DNA of 64,000 nucleotides from Candidatus Woesearchaeota archaeon (GTDB lineage: Archaea; Nanobdellota; Nanobdellia; Pacearchaeales; GW2011-AR1): NCBI GenBank assembly GCA_964355135.1, contig CAYHCG010000006.1, positions 9,453 through 73,452 on the forward strand, in the 5' to 3' direction. This document shows positions 20,112 to 41,220 of this stretch, in pieces. The notes beneath the pieces were generated by a model that had not been told where the DNA came from, did no database searches, and was given only the letters and a program-made list of their open reading frames with translations. Every line of letters starts with the position of its first letter. The stretch's first letter is position 1. A program made the translations under genes and the position numbers.

Positions 20112-20343
20112 GTGATATAAAAGAAAAATGGAGTTTTAACTGCTAAATTACTACTTATTATGTATGATAATATAACATGTAATAAGTAAGAAAGTTGGCA
20201 TTTTAAGCAACATTTATAAAGCAAAAATAACACTAAATAAGTATATTTTGGGGTGTAAAAACAATGTTAAATTTAGGGGCGCAAATAATTAGAAATTCCG
20301 AATTTTTTAATTCAAAATATTTTTATTTAATCTTTAAGAAAAG

Positions 20344-20380
20344 GGCTGTCCAAACACCCCAAAATTGTTTCTGGACAGCC
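20344..20380 (+). promoter_or_regulatory. 9-bp stem hairpin in the leader of the giant gene, followed by a T-rich run and a GGAGG RBS
   Basis: GGCTGTCCA (20344-52) pairs with TGGACAGCC (20372-80), then TCTTTTCTT. GGAGG lies about 7 nt upstream of the ATG at 20411. Confidence 0.5.
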
Positions 20381-20410
20381 TCTTTTCTTATGTGGAAAGG
20401 GAGGTTTTAG

Positions 20411-23400
20411 ATGTCTGAAAAGCTTAAAAGATTTAAGGAAAGAAATAACAGTTTAGCTGAAAGAATATTTTTAGCCCAGAGATATAAAAAAGAAGTAATA
20501 GAAAAAGTACAAAAACTGGTCGCAAAGTTAAATTCTGGAGAAATAACTCGTAAAGATTATGATGAAAGTCTACAGAAAATATTTGGAGTTAGAACACCAA
20601 AAGAATGGCTAACTTATTATGATAATTACATAGAGACTTATGAAAGACAATTAAGTGAAAGCAATAGACAACTTAACAAAGAAAAACTAAAGAAAGCAGC
20701 ATTTGTTTTTGTGCCTATATTTTTAGTTTTATTTTCAGTTATCTTTTTTGTTTATTTCTCAGATAGAGCAATTACGGGATTGGCTGTGCAAAACAGTAAA
20801 GAAGTTTTTACACAAAACATTAATTCCGAATTTAGTTCTAGTGGAAGTTATACTTTTGAGGTTAAACAGAGTGGGAAACTAAATTGGGCTAAAGTTTCCG
20901 GCAATATTGAAGGGGAAGGAAATGTTAAAATTTACTTATTGGCAAACGGAGGTGAGATTTTAGTTTTAGATAGTACTGATTTAGAAGTTGAAGAAGTTGC
21001 TTTAACTGGAGGAGTCATTACTGGATTTAATGTTGAAGGTGCCGAGGACTCTGGAGGAGAGTCTTCTGATAGTTCAAGCGGCGGCTCTTCAGGCAGTCAA
21101 GCAAGTACAGGCGATGTAAGCTCAACTAGTGGAGGAAGTTCTGAAGCTCCTTCACCAACTTCAGAAAGTACTAGCGAAACAACTTCTAGTAGTGATTCAA
21201 GTGAAAGCGCTTCAAGTCCACCTTCTGAGAATACTGTGGAAACTCCTGCAACTACGGAAAGTGAAACTCCTGTTGAAAGTAATGAAGTTAGCAGTGGGAC
21301 AACCTCTGAAGAAGTAATTGCGGGAAATGAATCGCAAAATAATGAGGAAACTAATGCTACTGGCGGTGAACCAACTCAAGAGAACACTACAGTTTCAGGG
21401 CAAACAACAACTAAAGAAAAGAAAAAGAAATTCTCAGATTATTGCAAAGAGAGTTGCGATTTGTCTAATTTGGAATTGGACAGAGATAGTTATGAATTGA
21501 GAGTTGAAATAAATGGGGCGGTAAAATTAAATCTAGATAAGATAAGATATGAGATAGAATTTGAGAAGACAGGAGAAATTATAACAGAAGAAAATGAAAC
21601 TGTACAGAACGAAACAAAAGAAATTACTCCTGAAATTGAATTAAACGAGACTCTTCCTGAGCTAAACCTTACTAATGTAAGTTCTGCTCCATTAATATTA
21701 AAACAAATCCCTAATCTTGAAATAGAAGTTAATTCAAGCTTTAATTTGACTTTAAGTGATTACTTTCTAAATGCCGAAGATTATGATATTAATAAAGTTG
21801 AGAACATTACTTTTGATCTTGCTGGAGATAATCTAGAGATTCTTCCTGATAAGGGCTTTTTGGGGAACAGAACTGCTGAAATAATTGCAGAGAATTCTTT
21901 TGGCAAAAATGAAAGCAATGAGTTTACAATTAATGTTGTTGAAAACATGCCCAAAATAGGAAATGCTACATCTAATATCACAACTTTACAGTATAAGGCG
22001 GTTATCAACAGACCAACTAAGTGGATTAAGATTTTGAACGCAACAGGGGGAGACTTAACTATTGAGCTTCCTAAGGAAGCGGAAAATATAACTGTAAAAA
22101 CGGGAAGCGATGTTGGCCTGGCCCTACAGGAATATGAGGATTATGAAGGGCTGGTTGATGGGGCTGACAAAGAAGATTTAATTTCAGGAGGGATAACGGG
22201 GAATGTAGCATTAGATCTTAAAGAAGGGAAGGGCCTTATACCAAGGTTTATTGATTGGCTGAAGAACTTGTTTTCTAAGGGGATAACTGGTAGAGCAATT
22301 ACGGAGCAAACTCTTGAAGCGCAAATAACCGAGACTAGTGAAAACACCATAGTCGATGTTACAGATATTGTAAATCAGACTCAAACTGGGGAAGTTGCAA
22401 TAGAGTATTACACTCAAGGGCCGGCAGCTAGAGAAGAAAATTTGACTAATGGGAAGAGAGTGGTTGTTTCTGGAAAAGATGAATTAAACTTTACGGATAT
22501 TTTGGCATTTGCAGAAATTGAAGAAAAAGTAGAAGTTGCGGATAGCAGTACAATAAAAATTTATTGGAGGGAAAACGCGAGTTTTATTAATTTTAGTGTA
22601 GGAGATTTGGATGGAAATGGGAAAATAGATTATATTGAATGGATCGTTCCTCATTTAAGCAACCAGACTTATGATATCATACTCATCACCCATGCAGAAC
22701 ATCTTGATAGTAACAGGACATTTATTTCTGATATATATGAAAGTGTTAGGGAATTAGATGGAAATTGGTCGGAGAGTATTGTTGACGGAGAGTATGTTAG
22801 GGTTACTTTTGAGAAGAATTTGACTAATGTTAACGATATCACTGTTTATGCTAAAGGAATAAACGGAACTGGACAAATAGAGGTTTATGAGTTTAATGAC
22901 ACACGTTTACTTGCGACATTCACTGATATACTTAATGAGACTTATTATAAGATTTATTTGACAAACTTAAGTAACTCGAGTAATTATTCACAAGGAGTTT
23001 TTGATTTACGAATTTTAAATGCCTCAGTGGAATTTGATTTAATTATTGATCCAACTTTGACTTTAAATGCTACTGGTGGAACGGGAACAAATACAACTGT
23101 TGAGGCAGGAAACTTTACACATTTGAGCATTGGAAGCTCAACTATTGGATTTGTTAATAATACCAATGTTGTTGCTTATTATCCTTTTGATACTAATACT
23201 TCTTCAAATACTGCCTTTGATTATTCCGCGAATAATTTAGATGCTGGTTTTATTAATACGGGGCCAAGATATGATGCAGGATTACTTGGAAACTCTTATT
23301 ATTTCAATAATTCAGTTTGCTTGAACACAACAAACAGTGCAGCATGGAATGTTACTAATCAGGTAACTCTTTCTGCTTGGGTTTATAGAAATAATAGTGA

Positions 23401-26400
23401 TACGGGCAGTGACTCTATTTTTATGCGAGGAGGCTCAGTTGTAGCAAATACTGAAATTGGTCTTGGAGTATTTCAATCTGGACTTTTAAGATTACTTATA
23501 AAAAATACTACACAGACTAATGCTGGAACATGTAACAGCGGTTCTGCATTACCTACCTTTAATTGGACTCATATTGCAGCGACGTATAATGGAACAACGT
23601 CTGTACTCTATATCAATGGTGTTGCAGAAACTCCTTGTACAGTTACTACTGGGAATATTATCTTTGCTGGAAACTCTCCTAGTATTGGTTGCCTCAAAAC
23701 AACGGCACAAGCATTTAACAACAATTGGCAAGGATGGATAGACGACTTAATGTTTTTGAATACCACTTTAAATGCAACACAAATTTCCCAAATTTATAAT
23801 AATCAAAGCTTGAGATTATTTTCTCGCGGAGAGCAGATATTTTCTAATTTAAATGGCTCGGGTAGTGGGGCTGAAGAAGAAATTAATATAAGGATAAATG
23901 CGAGCATGAATTTTGGCAGTTCGATAAATGTATCTTTAGGGAATTCTTCTGGAGGAACTTATGTTTATGGAAACGAATATGCTTTTAGCAATAATGTTGC
24001 AAATAATATTCCTTTAGGGACTCCAAATAATTATTCTTTAAAGTTTATATTTTATGCAGGTAATTCTTCTGCAAACTCTTTTATATCTCCTACTTTAGAG
24101 AATTATATTCTTGCTGAAAGCATTTTAGTAGTTCCTTCATTGACTTTGAATGCCCCGGCCAATGCAAGTACATTTAAAGAGGGAATATTTAATATAACTC
24201 TGAATGCAACTATTTTAGATAATGCGGCGACGTCAGCATATATTTACGGAGTTAATTCTTCTAACACTGCGAACTTTTACAAACATGGATTATTGTATCA
24301 GGCATTTGGCTTAGTAAATGGAACTCAAATAACTTACAATTGGACTTCTCCCGTAACTGTTCCTGATGCTTCTACTGTTGTCTTGTATCATTTGGATAAT
24401 AATTCTGTTTATGGGGAAAACCAAACTAGGGCTTGGGATTATGTTTCTGGAAATGTTAATTTAACTGCTGTTGGAAATGCTTTTCCAAATGTAAGTGGGG
24501 GGAAATTTGCTGGGGGATGGACTTTTGATGGAAGTGGAGATTATTTGAATGATGCCTCAAATATTGGAGCTTTAAATGGTTATTATCAATCCGGAACATT
24601 TTCTGCATGGGTTAAGAGAGCGGGAGCGAGTTCGAATGGATATGAAACTATAATTCAGGAAGGAGATAATACCAATGGTTTTGTGATAACAAATAATTGC
24701 GGATGGGATAATATGACTCAGGTCGGAACAGTATACATCCCAGAATTTGATCCTGTTGTTGTAATAGCAGAAACACCTAATAGTATTATTTCTGATGGAA
24801 ATTGGCATTTGATTACAGGCGTTTTTGATAATATCATTGCATTTAAACAATATATTTATGTTGATGGAGTACTTAGGAGTTCTGCAAGTGTGGGGGCGCC
24901 TAGTGATAGTGTTAAAGGAGTAAAGGTGGGAGGAGTACTGTCTTCCGTAGGGCAGAGTTGTGACGGAAGTGCAAATGCTGGCTCATTCAATGGAAGCATT
25001 GATGAAGTTGGAATTTGGAATAGGAGTTTAAGCGCAACTGAGATAATGAGCATGTATAGATTAAATGCACCGAAGTATTTTTGGAAAGTAAATGTTACGG
25101 ATTCTGTTGGAAATAGTAATGAGAGTGAGACACGCGAGTTTTATGTGAATCCTCAGACTGTTCCTTATACTGCATTGAATGGGCCTGCGAACAGGTCTAT
25201 ATTTTGGAAAGATATATTTAACATTACTTTGAATGCGACTGGTTATGATAATGATGATAGTTTTACTATTGAGATTTACGGGGCGAATTCTACAAATGCC
25301 ACTCTCTTTTATAATTATGGATTACTTTATAGACAGCAGGGAGTCAGTAATAATACGGCAGTTAGTTATAATTGGACTAATTCACTTGTAGATCCGGATA
25401 TTTATCTATATGCAGATGCCTTGTATCATTTAGATAATAATTCCAGATTAGGGGAGAATGATACAAGAGTGATTGATTCTTATACTGGAGATGGCGATGC
25501 TTTTAATTTAACACCTGTAGGAAACGCATATCCAAATATGACGGGAGGAAAATTTGCAGGGGCTTGGGAATTTGACGGAAATGGAGATTTTCTAAATGGT
25601 TCAAACTCTTTGCGCCCTGCCGGTGATCCTTCTTTTTCTGCATGGGTACGGCGAGCAGGAAATAGTTCAACTGGATATGAAACTATTGTTCAGGATAATG
25701 CAGGAAGTGGAGGGTATTCTTTAACTGCCAGCTGTAATAATAGTTTATTAGCGTTTTCAGCATATGATGGTACTTTGTTTGCAAAAGCTTCAACATCTAA
25801 TTCTATTCTCTCTGATGGTCAGTGGCATCATGTTTTGGGCATTCATAGTTCTTCTTACTCTAAAATTCTTTTATATGTTGATGGAGTTTTAAAAGCAAAT
25901 GCAACTTCATCAGTAGCTGTTCCGATAAACGATCCACATAAATTAGTTATAGGGGGTCATGGGGCAGGAGATTATGGTAGTGGTCCAGGAGGGACATCTT
26001 GTGTCTTTGGCGGCTCTTCTAGTGCAGGTTCATTCAACGGAAGTATTGATGAAGTTGCAGTCTGGAATAGCGATGTTTTTCAAATAGACACTGGCAGCGG
26101 TTTACATCTTAATACTAGTAATTTATATAAACTTATTAAAGGAAAATATTATTGGAAAGCAAACATTACTGATTCCTTGGGGAATAATAATGAAAGCGAA
26201 ACTCGCGAATTCGTTGTTAGGGATACGCCTTATGTTTTAGTGAATTCAAATATGAATTGCACCGACTTAAAGACTGAGGCTGTAAATTATTATTATGGTT
26301 ATTCTTGCACTGCTTCTGGGTATTCTACTTGTGTTGGACTAAATGCAGATTTGAATATTACAAATGGAACTTTGAGTGTTCCTTCAAATTGTAACATTCA

Positions 26401-29299
26401 ATTTAATCAAAGCAGTAATGGGCAGTATAGTTTTATTATTGAAGGAACTGGGAAATTGAATTTGAGCGGGGGGAATATTACCTCATCTTCTTCAACAAGT
26501 AGATTCAATTTAACTTCTTCAGTTGGAGTTATCAATTATCCTGGAAGTTATGGGAACTTTAGTTCTGCGAATGTTGTGGGGAGCGCTAATTTCTCTGATT
26601 CAAGAATTAATTTTTACAATTTTAATATAACTGGGCGGATGATAATTCTGAATTCGACGGATATCGCAACTACAGGGTATTCTATTGGTAGCGGGGGTAG
26701 ACTTGATAGGCAGTGGAGGTTGAATGTTACTGTTTTGGCCTCTGGCGCAGTAGTTTCAGGAGCAAATGTAACTGCAAGGAATGTTTCATTAAATATATTT
26801 GATTCTAAATCCACAGGTTCTGATGGCGCAGCCTGGCTTAATCTTTCAGAGTATGTAGATACTGGTTCGGGTAAAATGCATCAAAATAATTATACGATTA
26901 ATGTTACGAAGAATGGATATTTTGCAAACAGTACCACTATTAATTTGACTAGTGATAGTAGCAAATTGATAACCCTTGGAACGTATGATACCATTGAAGT
27001 TTCAAGTACTGAAACTTTACATGACGTATTTGCAAGAATTAACGATGTAACAATTTTTAATAATCTGAGTTCTGCATCTAGACCTTGCAGATATGTTGCT
27101 AGTGCATCGATAAATATCACTAGCGGGCATTTGGTTATGGAAGGATGTACCTTGGAGATGAATAGTAGCTTAGATAGTACTTATAAATTAATAGTTGGAG
27201 GTGGTCGATTGACTGCTAATTACTCAAATATAACTAGATTCGGATCTAATAATTACGACTTTTACACTGCGTCATCTGCGGCGACGCAGGTTGTTTTGAA
27301 GAATAGTTTTGTTTCAAGAGCGGGACACTTAAATTCTCCAAATTTGAGAGGTTTGACTTTGAATACAAATAATGTGACTTTTATTAATAATACTTTAGTT
27401 GATGCAGATGTTGCAAATTTAGAATTAGGAGCAAATGGAATAGTTGTTGAAAAATCTTTATTTTTGGGTCCTTCTGGAGTTACTAATTATCCTATTTTTG
27501 TGAGTGCTAATGATTCTATCATTTTAGATTCAAATTTGTCTGGTTCAACTGAAGAAGATGTGAGATTATCTTCTAGAACAAACATTACTTTTTTAAATAC
27601 AAATTATACGGATGAGGGTTTGGAAGCTGGAGCAGTTAATGTTTCCTTATTCAAAAAATGGTATGCGGGTGTTAGGGTTATAAATTCCAGCGGTGGCGGG
27701 GTTGAGAATGTAAACGTTACATTCTATAACAATAGCGGGAGTTTAACTCAAAGTGCATTGACAAATTCTTCTGGAGATATAGATACGCAGAATGTGACTC
27801 AATATGTTTCTAATGGGACAAACAGATTTTATCACACAAATTACAATATTACTGCAACAAAAGTAGATGGCATAAATGGTACAATAAATGTTAACATAAC
27901 CCAGAGTACCAATTATACAATTAGTCTTTCAACTTCTACACCAACAGTAACTTTTGTTTCTAGTATAGGAAGTGTAAATCCTTTGGGCGCAAGCGTCAGG
28001 AATATTACTTTTAACTTTACTGTCCAGCACGGAGACGGAGGGGAATATATCAACATTACAAGTTCTAAGGCTAATTTTACTTACGGAACGGAACCAATTA
28101 GATTAAACGACACTTGTAACTTACTGACAGATCAAAATACATCCACTACTCGAAACTTTACTTGTACTATTGGAATGTGGTATTTTGACGTTGCTGGAGA
28201 TTGGAATGTAAGCATTTATGTTGCAGATACGAGAGGTAATTCTACAACAAATATAACTACATTTACTTATGCAACATTACAGGATTTTGTTGTTTCCCCG
28301 ACATTGGTCACATTTGGAACTATAAGTCCTATTGATGTCAATAAGACTCCCTCAAATGATCCTTGGATATTGAATAATACCGGAAATTATGATCCGGTAA
28401 ATATTTCTATAGTCGCATTAAACTTACATGGGGAGACGACACAGTCGGAGTTTGTAGGGGCAGGTAACTTTAGCGCGTCTAATAATACGAGCTCCCCACC
28501 TTCTCCTTTGGAATGTAGCGGAAATTCTTTAATTAACGGTACAAATGTGAACATAACTAATGCTATTTTACCTAGGGGAAATAATTCTCTGAATTATGTT
28601 AATTCGACAAGTGGGCAAGAACAGTTATATCTCTGCCTTAAACAAATTCCTTCTGCGCTTTCGCAGCAGACTTATTCCACAAGTGGAGCGGGGGCTTGGT
28701 CAATCAGGATTTTAGTTGGCGTCTTTGCAGTTGGAGGAGGAATAAACAGAAAGAGAAAAAAGAAGTCGAACAAGCATAATAATTTGCTGGAGCTTGATGC
28801 TGAAAACATACTCGAGGTGCTGGATAAAAGATTAAGAGAGACTTACGAATTAGGATTAAATGAGATATTAGATATTGCAAGGAAGAGAAATGCAAAGAAG
28901 GAAACCAATAGGGAAGTAAAGAAAGAAATAAAGATACCAATTGAGGTGTTCAGTCAGAAAATTGGAATTTCAGAATCAATCTGCAAGTATCTTAGGGATA
29001 ATCTCCATTTAAGATATAACGAAATCTCCAGAGTGGTAGGCAGAGATCAAAGAACTGTTTGGAATAATTATAGAAATGCAAATAAGAAGATGAATGAAGA
29101 AATTAAAGTCAATGAGAAAACCATGTATATTCCAATGAAGGCATTTTTGAATAATAAATTAAGTATGCTTGAAAGTGCAATCTTTTACCTTAGAGAAGAG
29201 AGATATAGAAATATAGAAATTGCTTCTATGCTTGGAAAGGATCCAAGAAACATTTGGACCATATATAATAGGGCGAAGAGAAAAACTAATGGTAATTAA
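20411..29299 (+). CDS. giant surface protein A (2962 aa)
   Basis: N-terminal ~95-aa cytoplasmic domain, then a TM (aa ~96-116, nt 20696-20758) and a Ser/Thr/Glu-rich linker. LamG/ConA-like motifs follow (WTHIAATYNGTTSVLYINGV; SFNGSIDEVGIWNRSLSATEI; GSIDEVAVWNS). After a beta-helix-like region (~26230-27900) and a terminal Ig-like module containing MWYFD come the hydrophobic segment AWSIRILVGVFAVGGGI (about 28694-28744), RKRKKK and the HTH tail. GGAGG RBS. Confidence 0.9.
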   Translation: MSEKLKRFKERNNSLAERIFLAQRYKKEVIEKVQKLVAKLNSGEITRKDYDESLQKIFGVRTPKEWLTYYDNYIETYERQLSESNRQLNKEKLKKAAFVFVPIFLVLFSVIFFVYFSDRAITGLAVQNSKEVFTQNINSEFSSSGSYTFEVKQSGKLNWAKVSGNIEGEGNVKIYLLANGGEILVLDSTDLEVEEVALTGGVITGFNVEGAEDSGGESSDSSSGGSSGSQASTGDVSSTSGGSSEAPSPTSESTSETTSSSDSSESASSPPSENTVETPATTESETPVESNEVSSGTTSEEVIAGNESQNNEETNATGGEPTQENTTVSGQTTTKEKKKKFSDYCKESCDLSNLELDRDSYELRVEINGAVKLNLDKIRYEIEFEKTGEIITEENETVQNETKEITPEIELNETLPELNLTNVSSAPLILKQIPNLEIEVNSSFNLTLSDYFLNAEDYDINKVENITFDLAGDNLEILPDKGFLGNRTAEIIAENSFGKNESNEFTINVVENMPKIGNATSNITTLQYKAVINRPTKWIKILNATGGDLTIELPKEAENITVKTGSDVGLALQEYEDYEGLVDGADKEDLISGGITGNVALDLKEGKGLIPRFIDWLKNLFSKGITGRAITEQTLEAQITETSENTIVDVTDIVNQTQTGEVAIEYYTQGPAAREENLTNGKRVVVSGKDELNFTDILAFAEIEEKVEVADSSTIKIYWRENASFINFSVGDLDGNGKIDYIEWIVPHLSNQTYDIILITHAEHLDSNRTFISDIYESVRELDGNWSESIVDGEYVRVTFEKNLTNVNDITVYAKGINGTGQIEVYEFNDTRLLATFTDILNETYYKIYLTNLSNSSNYSQGVFDLRILNASVEFDLIIDPTLTLNATGGTGTNTTVEAGNFTHLSIGSSTIGFVNNTNVVAYYPFDTNTSSNTAFDYSANNLDAGFINTGPRYDAGLLGNSYYFNNSVCLNTTNSAAWNVTNQVTLSAWVYRNNSDTGSDSIFMRGGSVVANTEIGLGVFQSGLLRLLIKNTTQTNAGTCNSGSALPTFNWTHIAATYNGTTSVLYINGVAETPCTVTTGNIIFAGNSPSIGCLKTTAQAFNNNWQGWIDDLMFLNTTLNATQISQIYNNQSLRLFSRGEQIFSNLNGSGSGAEEEINIRINASMNFGSSINVSLGNSSGGTYVYGNEYAFSNNVANNIPLGTPNNYSLKFIFYAGNSSANSFISPTLENYILAESILVVPSLTLNAPANASTFKEGIFNITLNATILDNAATSAYIYGVNSSNTANFYKHGLLYQAFGLVNGTQITYNWTSPVTVPDASTVVLYHLDNNSVYGENQTRAWDYVSGNVNLTAVGNAFPNVSGGKFAGGWTFDGSGDYLNDASNIGALNGYYQSGTFSAWVKRAGASSNGYETIIQEGDNTNGFVITNNCGWDNMTQVGTVYIPEFDPVVVIAETPNSIISDGNWHLITGVFDNIIAFKQYIYVDGVLRSSASVGAPSDSVKGVKVGGVLSSVGQSCDGSANAGSFNGSIDEVGIWNRSLSATEIMSMYRLNAPKYFWKVNVTDSVGNSNESETREFYVNPQTVPYTALNGPANRSIFWKDIFNITLNATGYDNDDSFTIEIYGANSTNATLFYNYGLLYRQQGVSNNTAVSYNWTNSLVDPDIYLYADALYHLDNNSRLGENDTRVIDSYTGDGDAFNLTPVGNAYPNMTGGKFAGAWEFDGNGDFLNGSNSLRPAGDPSFSAWVRRAGNSSTGYETIVQDNAGSGGYSLTASCNNSLLAFSAYDGTLFAKASTSNSILSDGQWHHVLGIHSSSYSKILLYVDGVLKANATSSVAVPINDPHKLVIGGHGAGDYGSGPGGTSCVFGGSSSAGSFNGSIDEVAVWNSDVFQIDTGSGLHLNTSNLYKLIKGKYYWKANITDSLGNNNESETREFVVRDTPYVLVNSNMNCTDLKTEAVNYYYGYSCTASGYSTCVGLNADLNITNGTLSVPSNCNIQFNQSSNGQYSFIIEGTGKLNLSGGNITSSSSTSRFNLTSSVGVINYPGSYGNFSSANVVGSANFSDSRINFYNFNITGRMIILNSTDIATTGYSIGSGGRLDRQWRLNVTVLASGAVVSGANVTARNVSLNIFDSKSTGSDGAAWLNLSEYVDTGSGKMHQNNYTINVTKNGYFANSTTINLTSDSSKLITLGTYDTIEVSSTETLHDVFARINDVTIFNNLSSASRPCRYVASASINITSGHLVMEGCTLEMNSSLDSTYKLIVGGGRLTANYSNITRFGSNNYDFYTASSAATQVVLKNSFVSRAGHLNSPNLRGLTLNTNNVTFINNTLVDADVANLELGANGIVVEKSLFLGPSGVTNYPIFVSANDSIILDSNLSGSTEEDVRLSSRTNITFLNTNYTDEGLEAGAVNVSLFKKWYAGVRVINSSGGGVENVNVTFYNNSGSLTQSALTNSSGDIDTQNVTQYVSNGTNRFYHTNYNITATKVDGINGTINVNITQSTNYTISLSTSTPTVTFVSSIGSVNPLGASVRNITFNFTVQHGDGGEYINITSSKANFTYGTEPIRLNDTCNLLTDQNTSTTRNFTCTIGMWYFDVAGDWNVSIYVADTRGNSTTNITTFTYATLQDFVVSPTLVTFGTISPIDVNKTPSNDPWILNNTGNYDPVNISIVALNLHGETTQSEFVGAGNFSASNNTSSPPSPLECSGNSLINGTNVNITNAILPRGNNSLNYVNSTSGQEQLYLCLKQIPSALSQQTYSTSGAGAWSIRILVGVFAVGGGINRKRKKKSNKHNNLLELDAENILEVLDKRLRETYELGLNEILDIARKRNAKKETNREVKKEIKIPIEVFSQKIGISESICKYLRDNLHLRYNEISRVVGRDQRTVWNNYRNANKKMNEEIKVNEKTMYIPMKAFLNNKLSMLESAIFYLREERYRNIEIASMLGKDPRNIWTIYNRAKRKTNGN
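28745..29296 (+). other. C-terminal tail of giant A with two sigma70-region-4/LuxR-like HTH units
   Basis: Unit 1 is about 28928-29092 (ISESICKYLRDNLHLRYNEISRVVGRDQRTVWNNYRNANKK). Unit 2 is about 29124-29290 (LSMLESAIFYLREERYRNIEIASMLGKDPRNIWTIYNRAKRK). Compare the sigma r4 pattern LS..E..V..L....G.S..EIA..LG.S..TV....hRA..KL. Confidence 0.65.
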
Positions 29300-33554: not shown

Positions 33555-34094
33555 ATGAATAAATATCGATTGCTTATCTTGCTCTGTGTATTGTCTGTAA
33601 TTGGCTTGAGTGTAAATGCTAATGCTGTCGGGATTGCATATAATGACTTTTTATGCCCGGATAGACCCATTATTCTATATGAAGGCGAAGAGAGAACTGT
33701 AAGCTTATGGCTACAGAATTCCAATGTCGAAGATGAAAAAGTCAGAGTAAAGATTCTTAACAATGAAGAAGGAATTATCGACATTAACGAAAAAGATTAT
33801 GTAGTAGAAGCTGGAACATATGATACTGAACTGAAGTTCAAGCTAAGAATTCCAGAAAATGTTTCACTAGGGACTCGCTATGATATGGTTCTTAATTTCT
33901 TAAATGTTCCAATGGAAGAAACTGGCGGAATAGCACTAACTACGGCAATGAATGTAAATGTCTGTGTCCAGGTTGGAGAATACGTCGCCACATCGCCTCC
34001 TCCAGGATTTAGTACAACTACATGGATTATCTTGGCGATAATAGCAGTAGTAATTTTAGCGGCAATTATAATTTTCATAAGAAAAAAGAAATAG
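33555..34094 (+). CDS. small secreted beta-sandwich protein with C-terminal TM and basic tail (family member 1)
   Basis: Start set at MNKYRLL. Signal peptide. CPDRP...NVCVQV Cys pair. C-terminus WIILAIIAVVILAAIIIFIRKKK. Paralogous to 34133.. and 40648... Confidence 0.75.
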   Translation: MNKYRLLILLCVLSVIGLSVNANAVGIAYNDFLCPDRPIILYEGEERTVSLWLQNSNVEDEKVRVKILNNEEGIIDINEKDYVVEAGTYDTELKFKLRIPENVSLGTRYDMVLNFLNVPMEETGGIALTTAMNVNVCVQVGEYVATSPPPGFSTTTWIILAIIAVVILAAIIIFIRKKK

Positions 34095-34132: not shown

Positions 34133-34690
34133 ATGAAGAGGAAAATTTTATTATGTCTCATTTTATTGTTGAGCTTGCTATTTGTAAGAAATGTCTTGGC
34201 ATTCGGTGTGGCTTATGCTGATTTTAGATGTCCTGACAATCCTCTAAAATTATTTCCGGGTCAGGAAAAGATAACTAGCCTATGGCTGCAAAACATGGCC
34301 GATGATGATGCAAGTGTCGCCGTTATTCTTAGAGAGGGCGCAGGCATAGCTGAAATGGAAACTCAAAATTACCTGGTCAAATCTAAAACAGAGGATACTA
34401 GCGTTCCTATCACTTTTAAAATTCCTGAAGATGAACCTATAGGTGCGAATCATACCGTTGTTATCGCTTTTGATACTATAATAGATGGAGAAAGCGGAGG
34501 AGTTGCTATCGGAACAGGAATGGACGTTAAAGTCTGTGTTCAGATTGTACCAGAGTATCCTGTTGAACTCTCTCCTGTGGATAAAGAAAGTGGGAAAGCA
34601 TGGTACTATGTGATTGGATTCGTGATTTTAGCTGCATTAATTGTAGTTTTTGTGGTAAGAAGAAAGAGGGCAAATAAGTCTTTGAGGTAA
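34133..34690 (+). CDS. small secreted beta-sandwich protein with C-terminal TM and basic tail (family member 2)
   Basis: Signal peptide. AYADFRCPDNP...GGVAIGTGMDVKVCVQIV aligns with the preceding gene. C-terminus YYVIGFVILAALIVVFVVRRKR. Confidence 0.75.
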   Translation: MKRKILLCLILLLSLLFVRNVLAFGVAYADFRCPDNPLKLFPGQEKITSLWLQNMADDDASVAVILREGAGIAEMETQNYLVKSKTEDTSVPITFKIPEDEPIGANHTVVIAFDTIIDGESGGVAIGTGMDVKVCVQIVPEYPVELSPVDKESGKAWYYVIGFVILAALIVVFVVRRKRANKSLR

Positions 34691-34824
34691 ATCATATAAA
34701 TTAAGCTCTAATTAATACAGAATAAGACAAATCTAATACGTTTTAATGGAGAAAAAGGCTTAAAATGGTAAGTTTTATATAGCATTTTTCATACAATATA
34801 AGCATAAGAGAGCTTAATATTGCA

Positions 34825-37800
34825 ATGACTGAAAAAATTGATTTTCTAAATGAGAAAAGAAAGGAATTACTGGAAAGAATTAATGTTGCGCAAAATTACA
34901 AAAAAGAAGTTGGCGAAAAAGTTCAGAAACTTGCAGCAAGATTTAGCATAGGAGAACTGAATTTTTTTGAGTATCATCAGGAACTGAAGAAAAATTTTGG
35001 AGATAAGTCGCCTGCTGATTGGATCGAGTACTATGACAAGTATATTGAAAAGTGCCGCACGGAGCTTAAAAAGTGCGGCGAAGAAATAAACGAGTTGAGA
35101 ATAAAAAAAGTTGCAAGATTTTCTCCTTTGATTTTGGTTATTTTTATCTTTGCACTAGTTCTTTATTATAATTTTAAAGATAGTTCTATCTTACTTTCAC
35201 CTTCCGAAATATTCACTGAAAAAATAAATTTTGTGGCTAGTGAAGATGGTTCATTTATGTTTGAGCCACAACAGGGAGGGAGACTTAGCAGTTTGAGAAT
35301 TTCAGGAGATATTAATGGAGGAGGAAATGTTAAAATTTATCTCCAAGCGAATGGAAATGAATTATTGATTTTAGATAGCGACGCTATAGGGTATAAAGGA
35401 ATAAGCGGGCTTGCAATAGAAGAATTCGATAGAGTTCTTGATGAAAATGAAAGTATTGAGAAAAATGCAACTATTTTAGTGGAAGAGAATATTGAAACTA
35501 TTGAAGTTAACGATAGTTTAGATGATATAGAAAATAAAACTGAAGCTAACTCAGAAATCAAAAAAGGATTTGTTAATTATTGCAATGAAACTTGTGATTT
35601 AGACAGTATTGATTTAGGAGACTCTTATGAAATAAAAATTGTGATAGGGGGAGAGGCCGAGGTTATAATTGAGGAGATTAACTATAAGATTACTAAGAAA
35701 GAGGTAAGAGAAGATATCGAAATAGAAACTCCTAGAAATGAGACAAATCAGACTGTAGTTAGAGATATAGAAAAAATTGAAAGAAAAAATGCACAAGGAA
35801 AAGAAGTAGTTGTGAAGAAAAAGCAAGGCGAGAAAAATATAATTGTAGAGACTACAGTTCCTATTGAGTGGAACGTGAAAGACGCAGGAAAAATCAGAGT
35901 AAGATGGAAAGAAGGAGGAGAAGAAATTAATTTTAATGGTGAAGATACAAATAATGACGGAATTATCGATAGTATTACTTGGGTTGTCAGTGATCTAGAA
36001 AGAGATCAAACTTATGAAATTATTGTGATCACAAAAGCAGAACATCTTGATACTGATAGAAGTTTTGTTAGTGATATTTACGATTTAGTTAAAGAGCAAG
36101 ATGGAGTTTGGAGTGAGAGTATTGGGGATGGAGAGTATGTAAGAGTTACTTTTGAAATCCCCCTTGATAGTACGAGAGATATAACACTCTGGTCTAGAAC
36201 GGTGAGTGGGAATCCTCGCGTTGAAGTGTATGAAACAAATGGAAATGTAACAGTTGCTTCATTTGAAAGTTTGAATGATGACGAATATAATAAGGTTTAT
36301 TTGACGGGACTTTCTGGAACACAAGAGACATTTGATTTGAGAGTTGTTGATGGTTCAATTGAACTCGATCATGTTATTGATCCTTATTTTTCTGATAAGG
36401 TTAAACTGTATTTTAATAATACTGCTACTCCAATTGGAGGAGCATGTCCTACTGGAAATAAAAAAATGGGAACTGCTGCACCCAACTCTGTTGTTATAAT
36501 CTGGCCTGGAGAGTTTGACAGCGGTGTTCCTGGGAATACGGATGCAGGGCAGTGGTATTCTGGGAGTGTTAACAGAGCAAATACGACATTATCTACTCAA
36601 ATTGCTAGCGCTACCCAGAGTTCAAGAAATTCAAATAGCTTCGGGCAGGGATGGATGTACGATGAGGATTTGACAGGACTGACTTTAGATGCAGGAAACT
36701 TTAGTTTTAATCTTTCTTTGATGGGTGGGCAGATGTCTGCAATAAACAGCGCAGAAAGGATCTTTGCCAGAATAAGTGTTGTTAATTGTAATGGTGGGAA
36801 TTTTAATTTAGTGCAAGATCTCACATCGACCAATATTGTTGGGGAAATAAGTCATACTGGGGGTCAAAACGGGTGGAAGGCAAATGAGGGAGGAAGAATA
36901 AACCATCCAGCTGTTTCTGCCGTCGTAAATGTCAATGTTAATTTTTCAACAAATCCTTATACATTCAAAAATGGGGAGATGTTGTTTATAGAATTGGGAT
37001 TTGGAGATGCTAGTAGCAACATTGATAGAACTATAGGATTGAGATACAATATTGCAAATTCTTTTGTTGTGACTCCTCCGTTTTTAGATAATACTCTGCC
37101 TTATGCTATTTTGAATGAACCTATGAATGACTCTAGATTTGTGGTAGGCGTATTTAACATTTCATTGAATGCAACAGTTGCTGATGAAACTATTTCTGAC
37201 TTGCTAAATGGGGAAATTTATGGGGTGAGAAACGGAAATGAGGCAGATTTTTACAAACATGGATTATTGAGTCGGAGATTTAATTTTACTAATGGAACGC
37301 AGGCGGTTTATAACTGGACTGCTCCTGTTGTAATTCCTGATGCTTCTACTGTTGTATTGTATCATTTAGATAATAATTCAAGATACGGAGAGAGTCAGAC
37401 CGAAGCAGTAGATTATGTTTCCGCGAATGTTAATTTAACTCCCGTCGGGAATGCTTTTCCTAATCAGACTAGCGGAAAGTTTGCAGGAGGGTGGGAATTT
37501 GACGGAAACGGAGACTACTTGGGTGATGCTTCCAATTTAGGGGCATTAAACGGAGTGGATAATGCAACTTTTGCTGCGTGGATAATGAGGGCTGGAGCAA
37601 GTTCTACGGGTCTAGAAGTTATTGTTCAGGAAGGTGGGCAGGGCAGAGGATTGGCACTGATTGCGAACTGCAACAATAACATGATGCAGTTTGGGGTAAA
37701 AGAAGGAGGCGTTTATTATGCTGCTAATGCATCTACTTTCTTGCTTAATGATGAGAACTGGCATCACTTGGCCGGAGTGTATGATGGGGATGCAGACACT

Positions 37801-39702
37801 ATTAAATTATATTTTGATGGTGTTTTAATGAATACTACTATTGCTACTACAGATATTGTAAATCCTGCTGTTGGAATAAGAGTTGGAGGAAGTGGTGGGG
37901 GAATTAGTCAGGGAACTTCATGCGCTTCTTCTAGTGTGGCAAGTTCATTTAATGGGACGATAGATGAAGTAGGAATATGGAATAGTAGCTTGACTGCTAG
38001 TGAAATAAAAGATCTTTATAGATTGAAAGTCGGAAAATATTATTGGAAAACTAACGTAACTGACCAGATTGGAAATAACAATGAAAGCGAGACAAGAGAA
38101 TTTACGGTAATTAATTCCCTACCTATTATATCTGATGTCAATGCAACGAACGTAACGCAGAACTTTGCAATGATCAACTGGACAACAGATTATGAGACTA
38201 ATAGTAGTGTTAATTTTGGCACGAATATGGCTTTGGGAACTAATATAAGTGAAAATATCTTAATCACAAAACATAATATTAGTCTAGCTGGTCTTTTATC
38301 AAATACACTTTATTTTTACAACGTAACTAGCTGCAGTTTTGATAATTTCTGTTCTACTAGCGGAACTTTTAATTTCACTACTTTAGCTTTATCTAATCAG
38401 GCTCCGGTTGTTAATTTTGTTAATTTTACGGATACAGGCGCTGTTCTGGGGGGAGTACAACCTGTTTTAATTAATTTCACTGTAAGCGACCAAAATGGTT
38501 TTGGAGATATAAATGACCCTAGTTCTAAAGTTGAAATTTACAATCTAAGCTTAACTGGCGCAGTAAGAGTAAATTCAACTTGCAGCGCAGTAGGTAATGT
38601 TGATGCAGATACAAGAAATTATAATTGCGTTGTTGGAATGTGGTATTTTGATCCTTATGGAATGTATACAGTGAACGTTACTATAAGAGATAATGCAGGG
38701 GCAAGAGCAGAGAATTCAAGCAGAGTTTTCCAGTTTATAGCTACTCCAGGATTTACTATGTCTCCTAATAGTATTAGTTGGCCTACCTTAAGTCCTGGGC
38801 AGAGCAATATACCGTCTATTGAAAATTTAACAATAAATAATACCGGAAACGTGGCTTTTTACAATGTTAGCATTACTGCTTTTAATCTAACTGGCGTAAC
38901 TGATTCAGGAAATTATATTCCTGCTATGAATTTCTGGGGCGGAGTAAGCTTTAACCAATGCAGCGCTCCTGCGACACAATTGAGAGACGATGGCAGCGTC
39001 AATATAAGTAACGCCTTTCTAAATACTGGGAATTTGTCTATTGGGGCAGGCGCGGGTCAGGAAGAAATATTTTTCTGCCTAGCTAGCGTTCCTGATCCTT
39101 TGCTCAAACAGACTTACTCTACTGAGGTTGGAAATCCCTGGCAAATTGAATTATTTACTGCAGCTTTGGTCTTGAGTGGATCAGTTGGCAGAAAGAGAAA
39201 AAGGAAAATAACTCTGGAAAATGAAGATTTACTTGAACTCTTGGGAGATAGGCTGGAAGAATTACTCGAATTAGTTAAGGCGAACAAATTAAGGGAAAAT
39301 AAGGTTGCAGAAAATAAAGAAATAGTTGTTCCTTTAGATATCTTTAAGCAAGAGGGCGGAGCTGCAGAGTCTTTATGCAAGTATCTTAAAGATAATAAAG
39401 GGATGAAGTTCAGCGAGATTGCGAGATTATTAAAAAGAGACAGAAGAACAATAAGCTTGAATTATAAGAATACGCAGACTAAAATACTGCCAGAGAATTT
39501 TGGCGAAAATGAATTTTACGTTCCTGTACGGATATTCTCCGATCGCAGACTAAGCATACTTGAGAGTCTTGTGTCATATCTAAGAAATAAGGGCTATAAG
39601 AATGTCGAAATTGCAAAAATGCTTGAGCGTGACCAGAGAAATGTCTGGACACTGCACTCCAGGGCAGCTAAAAAATTAAGAGTAGAAAATAAGAATATTT
39701 AA
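34825..39702 (+). CDS. giant surface protein B (1625 aa), paralog of A
   Basis: The N-terminal domain aligns with A (LERINVAQNYKKEVGEKVQKLAARF vs AERIFLAQRYKKEVIEKVQKLVAKL). TM at ~35113-35175. It carries the shared AEHLD module, a LamG unit (~37096-38109; ENWHHLAGVYDG...LYFDGVL; SFNGTIDEVGIWNSSLTASEI) and FN3 (INWTTDYETNSSVNFG...LYFYNVTS). It ends with the MWYFD Ig module, WQIELFTAALVLSGSVG + RKRKRK, and the tail. Confidence 0.9.
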   Translation: MTEKIDFLNEKRKELLERINVAQNYKKEVGEKVQKLAARFSIGELNFFEYHQELKKNFGDKSPADWIEYYDKYIEKCRTELKKCGEEINELRIKKVARFSPLILVIFIFALVLYYNFKDSSILLSPSEIFTEKINFVASEDGSFMFEPQQGGRLSSLRISGDINGGGNVKIYLQANGNELLILDSDAIGYKGISGLAIEEFDRVLDENESIEKNATILVEENIETIEVNDSLDDIENKTEANSEIKKGFVNYCNETCDLDSIDLGDSYEIKIVIGGEAEVIIEEINYKITKKEVREDIEIETPRNETNQTVVRDIEKIERKNAQGKEVVVKKKQGEKNIIVETTVPIEWNVKDAGKIRVRWKEGGEEINFNGEDTNNDGIIDSITWVVSDLERDQTYEIIVITKAEHLDTDRSFVSDIYDLVKEQDGVWSESIGDGEYVRVTFEIPLDSTRDITLWSRTVSGNPRVEVYETNGNVTVASFESLNDDEYNKVYLTGLSGTQETFDLRVVDGSIELDHVIDPYFSDKVKLYFNNTATPIGGACPTGNKKMGTAAPNSVVIIWPGEFDSGVPGNTDAGQWYSGSVNRANTTLSTQIASATQSSRNSNSFGQGWMYDEDLTGLTLDAGNFSFNLSLMGGQMSAINSAERIFARISVVNCNGGNFNLVQDLTSTNIVGEISHTGGQNGWKANEGGRINHPAVSAVVNVNVNFSTNPYTFKNGEMLFIELGFGDASSNIDRTIGLRYNIANSFVVTPPFLDNTLPYAILNEPMNDSRFVVGVFNISLNATVADETISDLLNGEIYGVRNGNEADFYKHGLLSRRFNFTNGTQAVYNWTAPVVIPDASTVVLYHLDNNSRYGESQTEAVDYVSANVNLTPVGNAFPNQTSGKFAGGWEFDGNGDYLGDASNLGALNGVDNATFAAWIMRAGASSTGLEVIVQEGGQGRGLALIANCNNNMMQFGVKEGGVYYAANASTFLLNDENWHHLAGVYDGDADTIKLYFDGVLMNTTIATTDIVNPAVGIRVGGSGGGISQGTSCASSSVASSFNGTIDEVGIWNSSLTASEIKDLYRLKVGKYYWKTNVTDQIGNNNESETREFTVINSLPIISDVNATNVTQNFAMINWTTDYETNSSVNFGTNMALGTNISENILITKHNISLAGLLSNTLYFYNVTSCSFDNFCSTSGTFNFTTLALSNQAPVVNFVNFTDTGAVLGGVQPVLINFTVSDQNGFGDINDPSSKVEIYNLSLTGAVRVNSTCSAVGNVDADTRNYNCVVGMWYFDPYGMYTVNVTIRDNAGARAENSSRVFQFIATPGFTMSPNSISWPTLSPGQSNIPSIENLTINNTGNVAFYNVSITAFNLTGVTDSGNYIPAMNFWGGVSFNQCSAPATQLRDDGSVNISNAFLNTGNLSIGAGAGQEEIFFCLASVPDPLLKQTYSTEVGNPWQIELFTAALVLSGSVGRKRKRKITLENEDLLELLGDRLEELLELVKANKLRENKVAENKEIVVPLDIFKQEGGAAESLCKYLKDNKGMKFSEIARLLKRDRRTISLNYKNTQTKILPENFGENEFYVPVRIFSDRRLSILESLVSYLRNKGYKNVEIAKMLERDQRNVWTLHSRAAKKLRVENKNI
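39190..39699 (+). other. C-terminal tail of giant B with two sigma70-region-4/LuxR-like HTH units
   Basis: Unit 1 is about 39321-39487 (AAESLCKYLKDNKGMKFSEIARLLKRDRRTISLNYKNTQTK). Unit 2 is about 39513-39677 (LSILESLVSYLRNKGYKNVEIAKMLERDQRNVWTLHSRAAKKL). Confidence 0.65.
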
Positions 39703-39740: not shown

Positions 39741-40646
39741 GTGGTAAACAAAATTTCGTTATTTGTCAGCATAATTATTGTAATTGCCGTTGGGACTTTG
39801 GTATTCTTGCTTTTTGGAGCAGGGAATAATTTGATTAGATTCTCTCCTTCTCCTTTTAATGTGAGTGTGCAGGTTGGGAACTCTCCTCCTGTAGTTAACC
39901 TTGTCAGCTTTACTAATCAGCCGGCTGTCGTTGGCGGAGTACAACCTGTATTAATCAATTTTACGGTTAGGGATTCTAATTTAGTTACTGATTTAAATGA
40001 TTCAACTGCAAGAGTTGAAATATACAATCTAAGCTTAACTGGCGATGTACGAGTAAATTCAACTTGTGATGTTGTAGTAGACCTAGACGCAGACACAAGA
40101 AATTATAATTGCGCTGTTGGAATGTGGTATTTTGATCCTTATGGAATGTATACAGTGAACGTTACTATAAGAGATAATGCAGGGGCAAGAGCAGAGAATT
40201 CAAGCAGAATTTTCCAGTATATAGCTACTCCGAGCGCAGTTATTTATCCTAATGCATTGAGCTGGGATCCTATCGCTGTAGAGGATGTTGATAAGCCATC
40301 AAATAATGACCCTCTGATTTCAAATAATACTGGAAATGTTGATTTCAATACTTTGACTTTAACCGCCTTTAACTTGCCTGGGTCTATAACTTCTAATAAA
40401 TTTATTTATGCGGGCAACTTTAGCGTTAATGTTGCAGATAACTGCTTAGGCGGAGATATGATGGCAAATAATACAGGCGTTGGTTTAAGTGGGGGAGCAT
40501 TATTAATTGGTAACTTATCTAGTGGGGGAGGAATTGCGCAAGAAAATCTCTATTTCTGCATAAAGGCAATCAATTCTGATACTCCTGCGGAAACATTTTC
40601 ATCATCAAACACGGGAGGAATTGCGTGGAATCTTGATTTTAGCTAA
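39741..40646 (+). CDS. secreted/anchored Ig-like protein, paralog of the terminal MWYFD module of giant B
   Basis: GTG start. N-terminal hydrophobic MVNKISLFVSIIIVIAVGTLVFLLF. GGVQPVLINFTV...RNYNCAVGMWYFDPYGMYTVNVTIRDNAGARAENSSR is nearly identical to giant B. Confidence 0.8.
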   Translation: MVNKISLFVSIIIVIAVGTLVFLLFGAGNNLIRFSPSPFNVSVQVGNSPPVVNLVSFTNQPAVVGGVQPVLINFTVRDSNLVTDLNDSTARVEIYNLSLTGDVRVNSTCDVVVDLDADTRNYNCAVGMWYFDPYGMYTVNVTIRDNAGARAENSSRIFQYIATPSAVIYPNALSWDPIAVEDVDKPSNNDPLISNNTGNVDFNTLTLTAFNLPGSITSNKFIYAGNFSVNVADNCLGGDMMANNTGVGLSGGALLIGNLSSGGGIAQENLYFCIKAINSDTPAETFSSSNTGGIAWNLDFS

Positions 40647-40647
40647 T

Positions 40648-41220
40648 ATGAACAATAAAATAATAACTTGGGCAGGGTATTTTTTGGTATTCTTAAGTGT
40701 ACTAATATTAATTGCTAGAGTAGATTCTTTAGGAGCAGCAATTGAATGCGCGCCAAGAACTCCTTGTACAATGTATGCGGGAGAGGAGAGAATATTCAAT
40801 ATTCCTTTGCAGTCTTCTCCAGGAGAGGGAGATACCAGGGTAAGATTTGAGTTGATAGATAATGCGGGAGGAATTGCCGAAATTGTTGGAGATAGTGAAT
40901 TTGCGGTCCCTGCTGGTAGTACAGATGTCAATGCTCGCTTAAGAATTAAGATTAGAGAAGATGCGACTACAGTAGAGCATATCAATGTGATTATAAAATT
41001 CAGTGAAATCCCTGCTGAGAGTGATGGGCAAGTAGGCCTGTCTCCAAGTTTTACTATGCCCTTTGCTATTACTGTGGGGGGAGTGGTCCCTCCAGTAGCA
41101 GTTGAAAAGAAGGAAGGTTTTGGCGCAGGTGGAGCTTTCTTTTTGGCAGTTATGCTAGTACTAGTTGTTTTAGTAGCTATTACATTTGTTTTGGTCAAGA
41201 ATAAAAAAGAGTTAAACTAA
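40648..41220 (+). CDS. small secreted beta-sandwich protein with C-terminal TM and basic tail (family member 3)
   Basis: Start set at MNNKIITW. The AGGIAEIVGDSEF... layout parallels 33555 and 34133. C-terminus FFLAVMLVLVVLVAITFVLVKNKK. Confidence 0.7.
   Translation: MNNKIITWAGYFLVFLSVLILIARVDSLGAAIECAPRTPCTMYAGEERIFNIPLQSSPGEGDTRVRFELIDNAGGIAEIVGDSEFAVPAGSTDVNARLRIKIREDATTVEHINVIIKFSEIPAESDGQVGLSPSFTMPFAITVGGVVPPVAVEKKEGFGAGGAFFLAVMLVLVVLVAITFVLVKNKKELN

Follow-up and report, generated by a model that had tools for sequence, protein, structure and literature searches.

A giant adhesin-like surface protein of a Woesearchaeota archaeon with a tandem helix-turn-helix tail and a candidate operator in its own promoter

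Introduction

Why should a giant, adhesin-like surface protein of an archaeon end in what looks like a pair of DNA-binding domains? The question is raised by a stretch of 64,000 nucleotides, referred to below as the window, from a Candidatus Woesearchaeota archaeon (assembly GCA_964355135.1, contig CAYHCG010000006.1, positions 9,453 to 73,452 of the forward strand), which is archaeal, has a G+C content of about 35% and encodes three giant open reading frames, A, B and C. The subject of this work is giant B (34825..39702, + strand), a protein of 1625 residues whose gene belongs to a cluster that encodes surface proteins. Most DPANN Nanoarchaeota are uncultured, and their genomes are tiny; the giant surface proteins that they make are the leading candidates for contact with the host, yet have been regarded as passive adhesins or enzymes.

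Transmembrane transcription regulators (TTRs), which combine a transmembrane (TM) region with a DNA-binding domain, are an established class in bacteria and archaea (PMC10269533), and the archaeal TTRs ArnR and ArnR1 control surface structures (PMC6396743). A text search of the TTR survey (PMC10269533) found no mention of DPANN or Nanoarchaeota, and a literature search found no paper describing the architecture or the promoter motif reported here. We propose that giant B unites in one adhesin-like protein a surface giant and a transcription factor that is tethered to the membrane and regulates its own gene, a reading to which we give a probability of roughly 0.55.

Results

Giant B opens with an N-terminal domain (N-domain; residues 1-95, 34825..35109, + strand), predicted to be cytoplasmic, which is a helical hairpin whose last helix extends into the first TM helix, TM1. 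In the AlphaFold model of this region (predicted local distance difference test, pLDDT, 90.8) helices span residues 2-41, 47-58 and 63-124, and the last of them is continuous through TM1. The TM helix that an earlier, sequence-only reading of the locus had claimed for B lies at residues 99-117 (FSPLILVIFIFALVLYYNF; 35119..35175, + strand), with a hydropathy of 2.37, a basic N-terminal flank and a predicted N-in orientation. Comparison of the N-domain with the PDB by Foldseek gave no significant match, only generic coiled-coil hairpins at E values of at least 0.1, and neither the Pfam and NCBIfam models nor the Foldseek search of the PDB brought out any similarity to anti-sigma domains such as RsgI_N or ZAS. 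The N-domain is a new juxtamembrane domain without recognisable relatives.

The ectodomain (residues 118-1438; 35176..39138, + strand) was characterised by Pfam matches and by collinear high-scoring segment pairs to A and C, and contains a post-TM beta domain, a 'TKAEHLD' domain common to A and C, a LamG domain, an FN3-like module and a double Ig-like module with the sequence MWYFD at residues 1272-1276. The single LamG unit and the FN3 module that had been read in B were recovered, the former as Laminin_G_3 (PF13385) at residues 904-1062 (37534-38010, + strand; 70.5 bits vs a cutoff of 27.6) and the latter as a weak Pfam match at residues 1106-1186 (38140-38382, + strand). In giant A the Laminin_G_3 model matches three copies with 147.8 bits against the same Pfam cutoff of 27.6.

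Giant A (20411..29299, + strand; 2962 residues) is a paralog of B with the same ends, its N-domain lying at 20411-20695, TM1 at 20696-20758, the hydrophobic segment before the tail at 28697-28747, the polybasic run at 28748-28765 and the two helix-turn-helix (HTH) units at 28928-29092 and 29123-29287. Residues 1-185 of B align with residues 1-188 of A at 43% identity (E=2e-42), as had been predicted for the N-termini, and the two proteins are collinear over most of B, with 44% identity at residues 319-520, 53% over the LamG region at 744-1095 and 36% at 1165-1617 (36-38% over the Ig module plus tail). By these alignments A and B are collinear paralogs, and the segment most similar between them is the LamG region, above both the N-terminus and the Ig module with the tail. 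The expectation that the ends would be better conserved than the middle was thus not borne out, and the related idea of constant termini around a swapped ectodomain does not describe A and B within the window; it does describe the wider family, where total protein length ranges from about 1,080 to more than 3,450 residues and the ectodomain varies while both ends stay recognisable.

The MWYFD module is followed, as had been noted, by WQIELFTAALVLSGSVG and RKRKRK (residues 1439-1461). The first of these is a short hydrophobic segment (residues 1439-1455; 39139..39189, + strand), presumed to be a stop-transfer sequence or second membrane crossing, and the second a polybasic run (residues 1456-1461; 39190..39207, + strand). 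The Ig-like module that comes before has as its final beta strand WQIELF, the first six residues of WQIELFTAALVLSGSVG, and two tail-less paralogs of this module encoded in the window (32573-33553 and 39741-40646) terminate exactly at that strand. The junction is conserved in 67 family members as YST-x4-5-W-x-I-(R/K) followed by 8-13 hydrophobic residues and 5-10 arginines or lysines, its typical form being W-T-I-(R/K) and then 8-10 hydrophobic residues; in a few fused members, such as that of locus L019 with about 20 uncharged residues, the hydrophobic segment has near-canonical length.

After the polybasic run come a linker helix (residues 1462-1499; 39208..39321, + strand; helix 28-57 of the AlphaFold tail model, pLDDT about 70) and the two HTH-like units that had been recognised in the tail, each opened by an (I/V)P-x3-F element that forms a short beta strand in the model. 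HTH unit 1 (residues 1500-1554; 39322..39486, + strand) is of the sigma-region-4/LuxR type, has an RDRRTIS variant of the recognition helix and gives weak Pfam matches to HTH_23 and HTH_38; HTH unit 2 (residues 1564-1618; 39514..39678, + strand) has the recognition helix RDQRNVWTLHSRA and matches Sigma70_r4_2 (E=7e-4) as well as the HTH of Tfx and EnfR. The two units are internal repeats (46% identity, E=4e-10). The model (mean pLDDT 79, with both HTH units above 90) has a linker helix of 30 residues and then two units of a strand, a short helix and three helices, and a single unit superposes on the C-terminal domain of EsrB at 1.3 A over 52 residues and on region 4 of SigR at 1.9 A over 46 residues, with the C-terminal domains of RcsB and EvgA likewise among the fold matches. 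The best sequence matches of the units are the HTH of Tfx, EnfR (PDB 8hnp), ECF (extracytoplasmic function) sigma factors and RcsB, all below cutoffs: Sigma70_r4_2 reaches 19.7-21.4 bits (cutoff 25.7), and the Tfx family model TIGR00721 reaches 29 bits (cutoff 60.25) with only positions 14-50 of its 137 aligned. Among sigma-factor models only those of region 4 match, all below cutoff, and no region 2 was found. As modelled, the tail is a DNA-binding module of two tandem sigma-4/LuxR-like units; without region 2 it does not qualify as a sigma factor. Its recognition helices vary unusually little from member to member of the family, and R100 and T104 not at all.

On which side of the membrane would this tail lie? 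Topology statistics were taken from 38 complete proteins, with N-x-S/T sequons compared to the expectation from shuffled sequences. Ectodomains carry 4.3 sequons per 100 residues (2.2 times expectation), N-domains 0.36 (0.74 times) and tails 0.59 (0.87 times), and lysine plus arginine make up 23.4% of both the N-domain and the tail and 5.3% of the ectodomain. These figures support a cytoplasmic location of both ends of the giant. For the tail such a location is probable from its composition and sequon content, and the proposal that the N-domain and tail share one side of the membrane fits well. In translocon assays, hydrophobic stretches that are very short but have basic residues on their flanks can serve as stop-transfer or TM segments, and if a segment of 12-14 residues truly spans the membrane here it would be a natural extreme case for stop-transfer sequences.

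To what extent is the arrangement peculiar to this locus? A tail profile built from a 6-sequence alignment and searched against the GTDB species representatives returned 260 relatives in that genome set, and the best 80 of the 260 (79 loci), together with the window, made up the locus survey. Nearly all of these 80 are labelled Pacearchaeota, Woesearchaeota or Nanoarchaeota; three carry other bin labels and are probably mis-binned. On this sampling the architecture is that of a large family restricted to the DPANN Nanoarchaeota (Pacearchaeota/Woesearchaeota). Word-indexed searches with the N-domain returned 1 and 4 matches only and an exhaustive profile search was needed, which gave 818 cluster representatives (254 at E<=1e-10) with the specific aromatic signature W66/Y69/Y70/D71/Y73/I74, so that the N-terminal similarity of A and B is not a matter of coiled-coil bias. 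Matches of the tail hidden Markov model inside N-domains were rejected as noise (i-Evalue >0.4).

The co-occurrence of the two terminal domains in other genomes, on which the sequence-only reading had staked its case, was observed from both directions. In the surveyed loci and the window 37 of the 41 complete tail-bearing giants have the N-domain, the four without a detectable one comprising two with a divergent helical N-terminus and TM helix and two that look broken; the surveyed loci also hold 27 giants cut at the 5' end and 15 standalone genes for the double HTH (dHTH). Conversely, the tail is present in 48 of the 69 N-domain proteins of at least 1000 residues among the top 150, and most of those without it run to the edge of a contig.

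Splitting of the genes does not break this link. A direct search with the tail found only short proteins of 119-211 residues, which are standalone dHTH proteins (two are named 'sigma24 family protein' by JGI) and whose genes almost always stand before a large surface-protein gene. In five loci (L002, L003, L043, L047 and L069) the dHTH gene lies directly upstream of an N-domain giant gene and overlaps it, and in L065 it is divergent; the occurrence of fused and split forms is Rosetta-stone evidence for a connection between giant and dHTH. In L047 and L065 the split-system giants stop precisely with the W-x-I strand (GAWTIQVI and NSWTITVN before the stop codon), and the hydrophobic and polybasic segment does not occur without a tail after it, which is expected if that segment carries the tail back across the membrane. 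Two standalone dHTH proteins (L001, which also has a polybasic run, and P0012) have an N-terminal TM helix of their own.

Two variations on the theme were observed. In L002 a standalone dHTH gene (2555-3091) directly precedes a giant with its own dHTH tail (3081-7565), a protein of 1494 residues with the full architecture from N-domain through polybasic run to dHTH; HTH unit 1 is nearly identical between the standalone and the fused copy and unit 2 has diverged. Six family members from elsewhere (P0034, P0017, P0019, P0023, P0025 and P0026) carry two tandem N-domain copies before the TM helix, a doubling that is of interest beside the two HTH units of the tail.

If the tail binds DNA, where is its site? 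Upstream regions of family genes in many genomes share an 18-bp motif, ATACATACATAATAAGTA, whose conserved blocks at positions 3-7 (ACAxA) and 13-18 (TAAGTA) lie about one helical turn apart, a spacing that would fit a tandem pair of HTH units. A position weight matrix (PWM) scan of 83 sources (1.17 Mb, both strands) gave 135 matches vs 7-11 expected from Markov-1 simulations; 109 of them (81%), spread over 46 loci, are on the same strand as a family gene and no more than 260 nt upstream of it, and most of the remainder lie 300-600 nt upstream of giants with long leaders. At least one site was found in 36 of 40 promoters and at least two in 29, with 82 of 85 sites co-oriented with the gene. 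The preferred positions abut the ATG and lie about 51 nt upstream, at a spacing of 51-56 nt and with a TTTATAAG-type TATA box between them, and in some family promoters 5-7 sites form an array with a spacing of 20 or 32 nt. In a motif-first control, 97 exact 17-mer matches were found in 596 Gb of genomes, and 23 of these precede an N-domain or dHTH gene by 1-210 nt. No 17-mer match in genomes with bacterial species-level labels precedes such a gene; one precedes a family gene in a contig binned as Patescibacteria (L089), which is probably mis-binned.

The two best PWM matches of the 64-kb window are those upstream of A (22.0) and of B (13.8), and the scan found none upstream of giant C or of other surface genes. 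Before giant B a putative TATA box, TTTTATATA (34773..34781, + strand), occupies the same place relative to the motif as the TTTATAAG boxes of related promoters; the operator-like copy TTTCATACAATATAAGCA (34787..34804, + strand; PWM 13.8) lies between this box and the ATG, and a weaker copy lies at 34690-34707. The promoter region of A (20152..20243) has its TATA box at 20213-20220 between TATCATACATAATAAGTA (20152-20169, - strand; PWM 22.0, the best of the window) and AATAACACTAAATAAGTA (20226-20243, + strand; PWM 11.1). Motif variants track recognition-helix variants: the HTH1 variant RDRRTI(S/G) of B, L008 and L004 pairs with a TAAGC variant of the motif, and the variant NRS(N/S)KTIW of L070 and L074 pairs with CTTATATAATAAGA(T/A). 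Binding of the motif by the tail is predicted from these sequence relationships.

Giant C (52104-61103; 2999 residues) has neither the N-domain nor the tail nor the promoter motif and serves as an internal negative control for the motif. It shares with giant B a domain of 260 residues (53% identity; B residues 283-544), and its N-terminus is of a basic, KYGPYYY type ahead of a TM helix.

The leader of A has features of its own. Long giants of the A type have 5' leaders of about 150-300 nt ('class 2') with the operator pair upstream and a strong stem-loop of 11-17 bp, whose stem sequence varies by genome, whose loop often carries CACAC(C)C, and which is followed by a U-run and sometimes by a GGAGG Shine-Dalgarno-like element before the ATG. 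In the leader of A, of about 165 nt, the stem-loop and U-run lie at 20335..20390 (+ strand; minimum free energy -27.2 kcal/mol, z=-3.4). Hairpins with other stem sequences appear in single-sequence folds of 7 of 8 related leaders (L013 2070-2131, L012 741-783, L016 2575-2616, L021 1794-1854, L024 1530-1589, L031 5941-5986 and L033 1758-1817); no consensus emerged from RNAalifold on a MAFFT alignment of the class 2 leaders, as neither the sequence nor the position of the stems is the same. The stem-loop may be an attenuator or a stabilising hairpin. Upstream of the promoter of A, the intergenic region 20000-20120 has two hairpins with the same loop (ctccaatCTTTAgattggag and ctccacaCTTTAgtgtggag) and then a third inverted repeat (aaatcc...ggattt); these gave no Rfam match at gathering thresholds and may belong to an unannotated small RNA.

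Several neighbouring genes also encode surface or secreted proteins. The two tail-less paralogs of the double Ig-like MWYFD module, of 326 residues (32573-33553) and 301 residues (39741..40646, + strand), each have an N-terminal hydrophobic signal or anchor segment. The latter is 52% identical to the membrane-proximal module of giant B (E=1e-85), ends in AWNLDFS before its stop codon, at the W-x-L strand, and includes a stretch of 29 residues 100% identical to giant B, which suggests a recent duplication or gene conversion. A family of proteins of about 180-200 residues, with a signal peptide, an ordinary C-terminal anchor of 20-24 residues and a basic tail, recurs beside giants both in the window (33561-34094, 34133-34690 and 40621-41220) and in a distant genome (L002, 143-727), and its members may be partner subunits of the same surface structure. 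HINT domains in polymorphic toxin systems usually stand before a toxin or cargo; in the window a Pretoxin-HINT domain ends two secreted proteins (42321-44258, + strand, and 47737-50634, - strand), one of which has an M64-like peptidase match, with almost nothing beyond HINT. A tRNA gene at 12286-12407 (122 nt) matched the full tRNA model as an intron-containing gene and was not called by ARAGORN. The window also encodes a rhomboid intramembrane protease (6758-7390; Pfam Rhomboid, E=4e-27), a kind of enzyme common in archaea, whose gene does not adjoin the giants.

Discussion

The observations above can be joined in a mechanism by which the N-terminal helical hairpin and TM1 would keep the N-terminus of the giant in the cytoplasm, with the glycosylated, adhesin-like ectodomain of 1,000-3,300 residues (LamG, Ig-like, FN3 and beta-helix) outside the cell. 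The short hydrophobic stop-transfer segment and its polybasic clamp would then return the chain into the cell and place the tandem HTH units at the cytoplasmic face of the membrane, where the N-domain may serve as a docking partner of the tail. There the tandem HTH would bind the bipartite 18-bp operator repeated on either side of the TATA box of its own gene, so that production of the giant would be fed back on its own promoter and possibly be coupled to events at the surface, for example contact with a host. A soluble protein encoded immediately upstream of the giant gene would be this same regulator in related genomes. Negative autoregulation is the most likely sign because the proximal site lies between the TATA box and the start codon, which is the usual place of action for archaeal repressors; the distal site could add cooperativity or activation.

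Several points weigh against this reading. The hydrophobic segment near the C-terminus of giant B stays below the Kyte-Doolittle threshold of 1.4 for 19 residues, the distance from the conserved tryptophan to the polybasic run is modally 12-14 residues across the family, usually with an arginine or lysine inside, and other surface proteins of the window have C-terminal anchors of 20-24 residues; a true membrane crossing before the tail is therefore not assured. No Pfam or NCBIfam HTH model reaches its curated cutoff for the tail, and the whole two-unit tail has no significant structural match in the PDB by Foldseek (E>=0.02). The model of the N-domain resembles a generic coiled-coil hairpin, and the domain is absent from the dHTH-linked giants of L070, L071, L074, L077 and L081, which share the post-TM beta domain but have only a short N-terminus and a TM helix ahead of it. 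The proposal that the two ends form one functional unit consequently stands in so far as they are a conserved, co-occurring unit, and falls in so far as it would make the N-domain obligatory. As to the motif, the PWM was seeded from family promoters, yet it was scanned over whole loci and followed by the motif-first check; the covariation of helix and motif rests on two or three clades with few independent events; and another factor could bind the site.

How do other explanations fare against the same evidence? In Woesearchaeota, Castelle et al. (2021; PMC8204110) reported genes annotated as sigma-70 but found no anti-sigma factors, and the dHTH could be an active regulator held by the N-domain and/or the membrane tether as an inhibitory 'anti-factor', as in SigI-RsgI systems, until conformational change or intramembrane proteolysis on binding of a ligand or host by the ectodomain releases it. 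The position of dHTH genes immediately upstream of genes for an N-domain, TM helix and ectodomain does resemble sigI-rsgI operons, the ectodomains carry modules of carbohydrate-binding type (LamG), N-domain and dHTH are found together in cis as well as in trans, helix-destabilising glycine, serine and proline abound in the short hydrophobic segment, and a rhomboid gene is at hand in the window. Set against this, the N-domain resembles no anti-sigma domain in sequence or fold and is missing from several dHTH-linked giants, no protease consistently adjoins, and the dHTH has no sigma-2 domain in organisms whose RNA polymerase works with TBP and TFB, not sigma factors; we regard such sequestration as unlikely, while taking it seriously. 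A more far-reaching version, which we hold equally doubtful, is a Notch-like host-contact receptor working by regulated intramembrane proteolysis in an archaeon: once the ectodomain is bound or pulled, an intramembrane protease, for example the rhomboid of the window, would gain access to the short, helix-poor hydrophobic segment, and the freed tandem-HTH tail would act on ATACATACATAATAAGTA operators, with the N-terminal hairpin retaining or gating it. If true, it would be the first proposed mechanism by which a DPANN episymbiont turns physical host contact into gene regulation, and it would explain the Woesearchaeota 'sigma factors without anti-sigma factors'.

The regulatory role of the tail may itself be questioned, as the motif might be bound by some other factor and the tail have a non-regulatory task at the membrane, such as tethering the chromosome or its own locus in aid of co-translational export of a very long protein, or protein-protein interaction. 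Binding of the motif by the tail is after all a prediction, the tail is made in stoichiometric amounts with a structural surface protein, and the invariance of the recognition helices (R100, T104) could reflect a conserved partner instead of a diversifying operator. The specificity of the motif for dHTH-associated genes, the way its variants follow those of the recognition helix and the ordinary, dedicated-regulator look of soluble dHTH genes in giant operons nevertheless render this quite improbable. Still less probable is an extracellular tail, the giant being a type II membrane protein with a single N-terminal anchor, and its hydrophobic and polybasic segment together with the HTH pair either a binder of anionic polymers or of DNA outside the cell, or an effector that enters or crosses the membrane of the host. 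A run of 5-10 lysines or arginines is a strong stop-transfer and cytoplasmic retention determinant under the positive-inside rule, which argues against such an arrangement, as do the absence of ectodomain-like sequon enrichment from the tail, its match in composition to the cytoplasmic N-domain, the lack of a signal peptide in standalone dHTH proteins and the cognate-looking motif in the promoters of the organism itself; in its favour, the hydrophobic segment does not reach the length of a canonical TM helix, the stretch with its polybasic run resembles membrane-active or cell-penetrating peptides, and according to PMC8204110 these organisms are thought to be nucleotide-scavenging episymbionts. 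That giant and regulator genes were wrongly joined in assembly or annotation might be suspected from the existence of split versions and from the stop codon between giant and dHTH in L017, but the reading frame is continuous in A and B and the fusion recurs, its junction sequence conserved, in over 60 independent contigs of metagenome-assembled genomes from many studies, and we reject the artefact as hardly credible. Frameshifting or slippage at the polybasic codons as a source of tail-less giants was considered too and found no support, the longest A-run being 5-6 nt.

How does a membrane-tethered autoregulator of this kind compare with known systems? Giant B shares with TTRs at least one predicted TM region (TM1) together with a DNA-binding domain, likewise predicted (an HTH fold with pLDDT >90 and superpositions of 1.3-1.9 A), and like ToxR, CadC, TcpP and ArnR/ArnR1 the giants unite in one chain a membrane anchor, an extracytoplasmic part and an HTH, presumed to act at promoters from the membrane. 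Known TTRs, however, are small, and the DNA-binding domain of ToxR and CadC is N-terminal, before a single TM helix, whereas the giants have a C-terminal tandem sigma-4/LuxR-like HTH, a second, very short hydrophobic segment, an adhesin-like ectodomain of 1,000-3,300 residues and an apparent target in their own promoter. The family is TTR-like, with a newly recognised conserved operator. The likeness to the SigI/RsgI and ECF sigma/anti-sigma systems (Clostridium thermocellum and relatives) lies in a small sigma-4 regulator gene immediately upstream of a gene for a protein with an N-domain, one TM helix and carbohydrate-binding modules, and in a logic that couples surface sensing to transcription; the differences are that both dHTH units are region-4-like repeats with no region 2, that the N-domain is unrelated to RsgI_N/ZAS and that the regulator is fused to the C-terminus of the sensor in most family members.

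Other likenesses concern the tail and its junction. With Tfx, EnfR and the LuxR/FixJ (GerE-type) proteins only an HTH core of about 40 residues matches, far below family cutoffs, and those families do not have the (I/V)P-x3-F beta-strand element that joins the units here. As in Tc3 transposase, CENP-B and the paired domain, two HTH units could read adjacent major grooves, as would suit an 18-bp site of two parts whose conserved blocks stand about 10 bp from each other; among the weak fold matches of the tail (TM-score about 0.2-0.3) are Tc3 and CENP-B, without sequence relationship. The end of the ectodomain recalls PGF-CTERM/archaeosortase signals and anchors of a TM helix with lysine and arginine in having a tripartite arrangement of motif (YST..G.W.I), hydrophobic stretch and basic cluster. 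In giant B, however, the signal is not at the extreme C-terminus, as 164 residues follow the segment, there is no PGF-like motif and the hydrophobic stretch has half the usual length.

If the proposed circuit is correct, giants that carry, or are genetically coupled to, a dedicated tandem-HTH regulator with an operator in their own promoters would offer a concrete set of protein, DNA site and predicted repression geometry. The Woesearchaeota sigma-70-annotated genes reported by Castelle et al. (PMC8204110) are probably standalone dHTH proteins and not sigma factors, and the dHTH family may thus be an answer to that puzzle, as sigma-4-like regulators tied to surface giants. The circuit would bear on how DPANN symbionts sense and hold their hosts.

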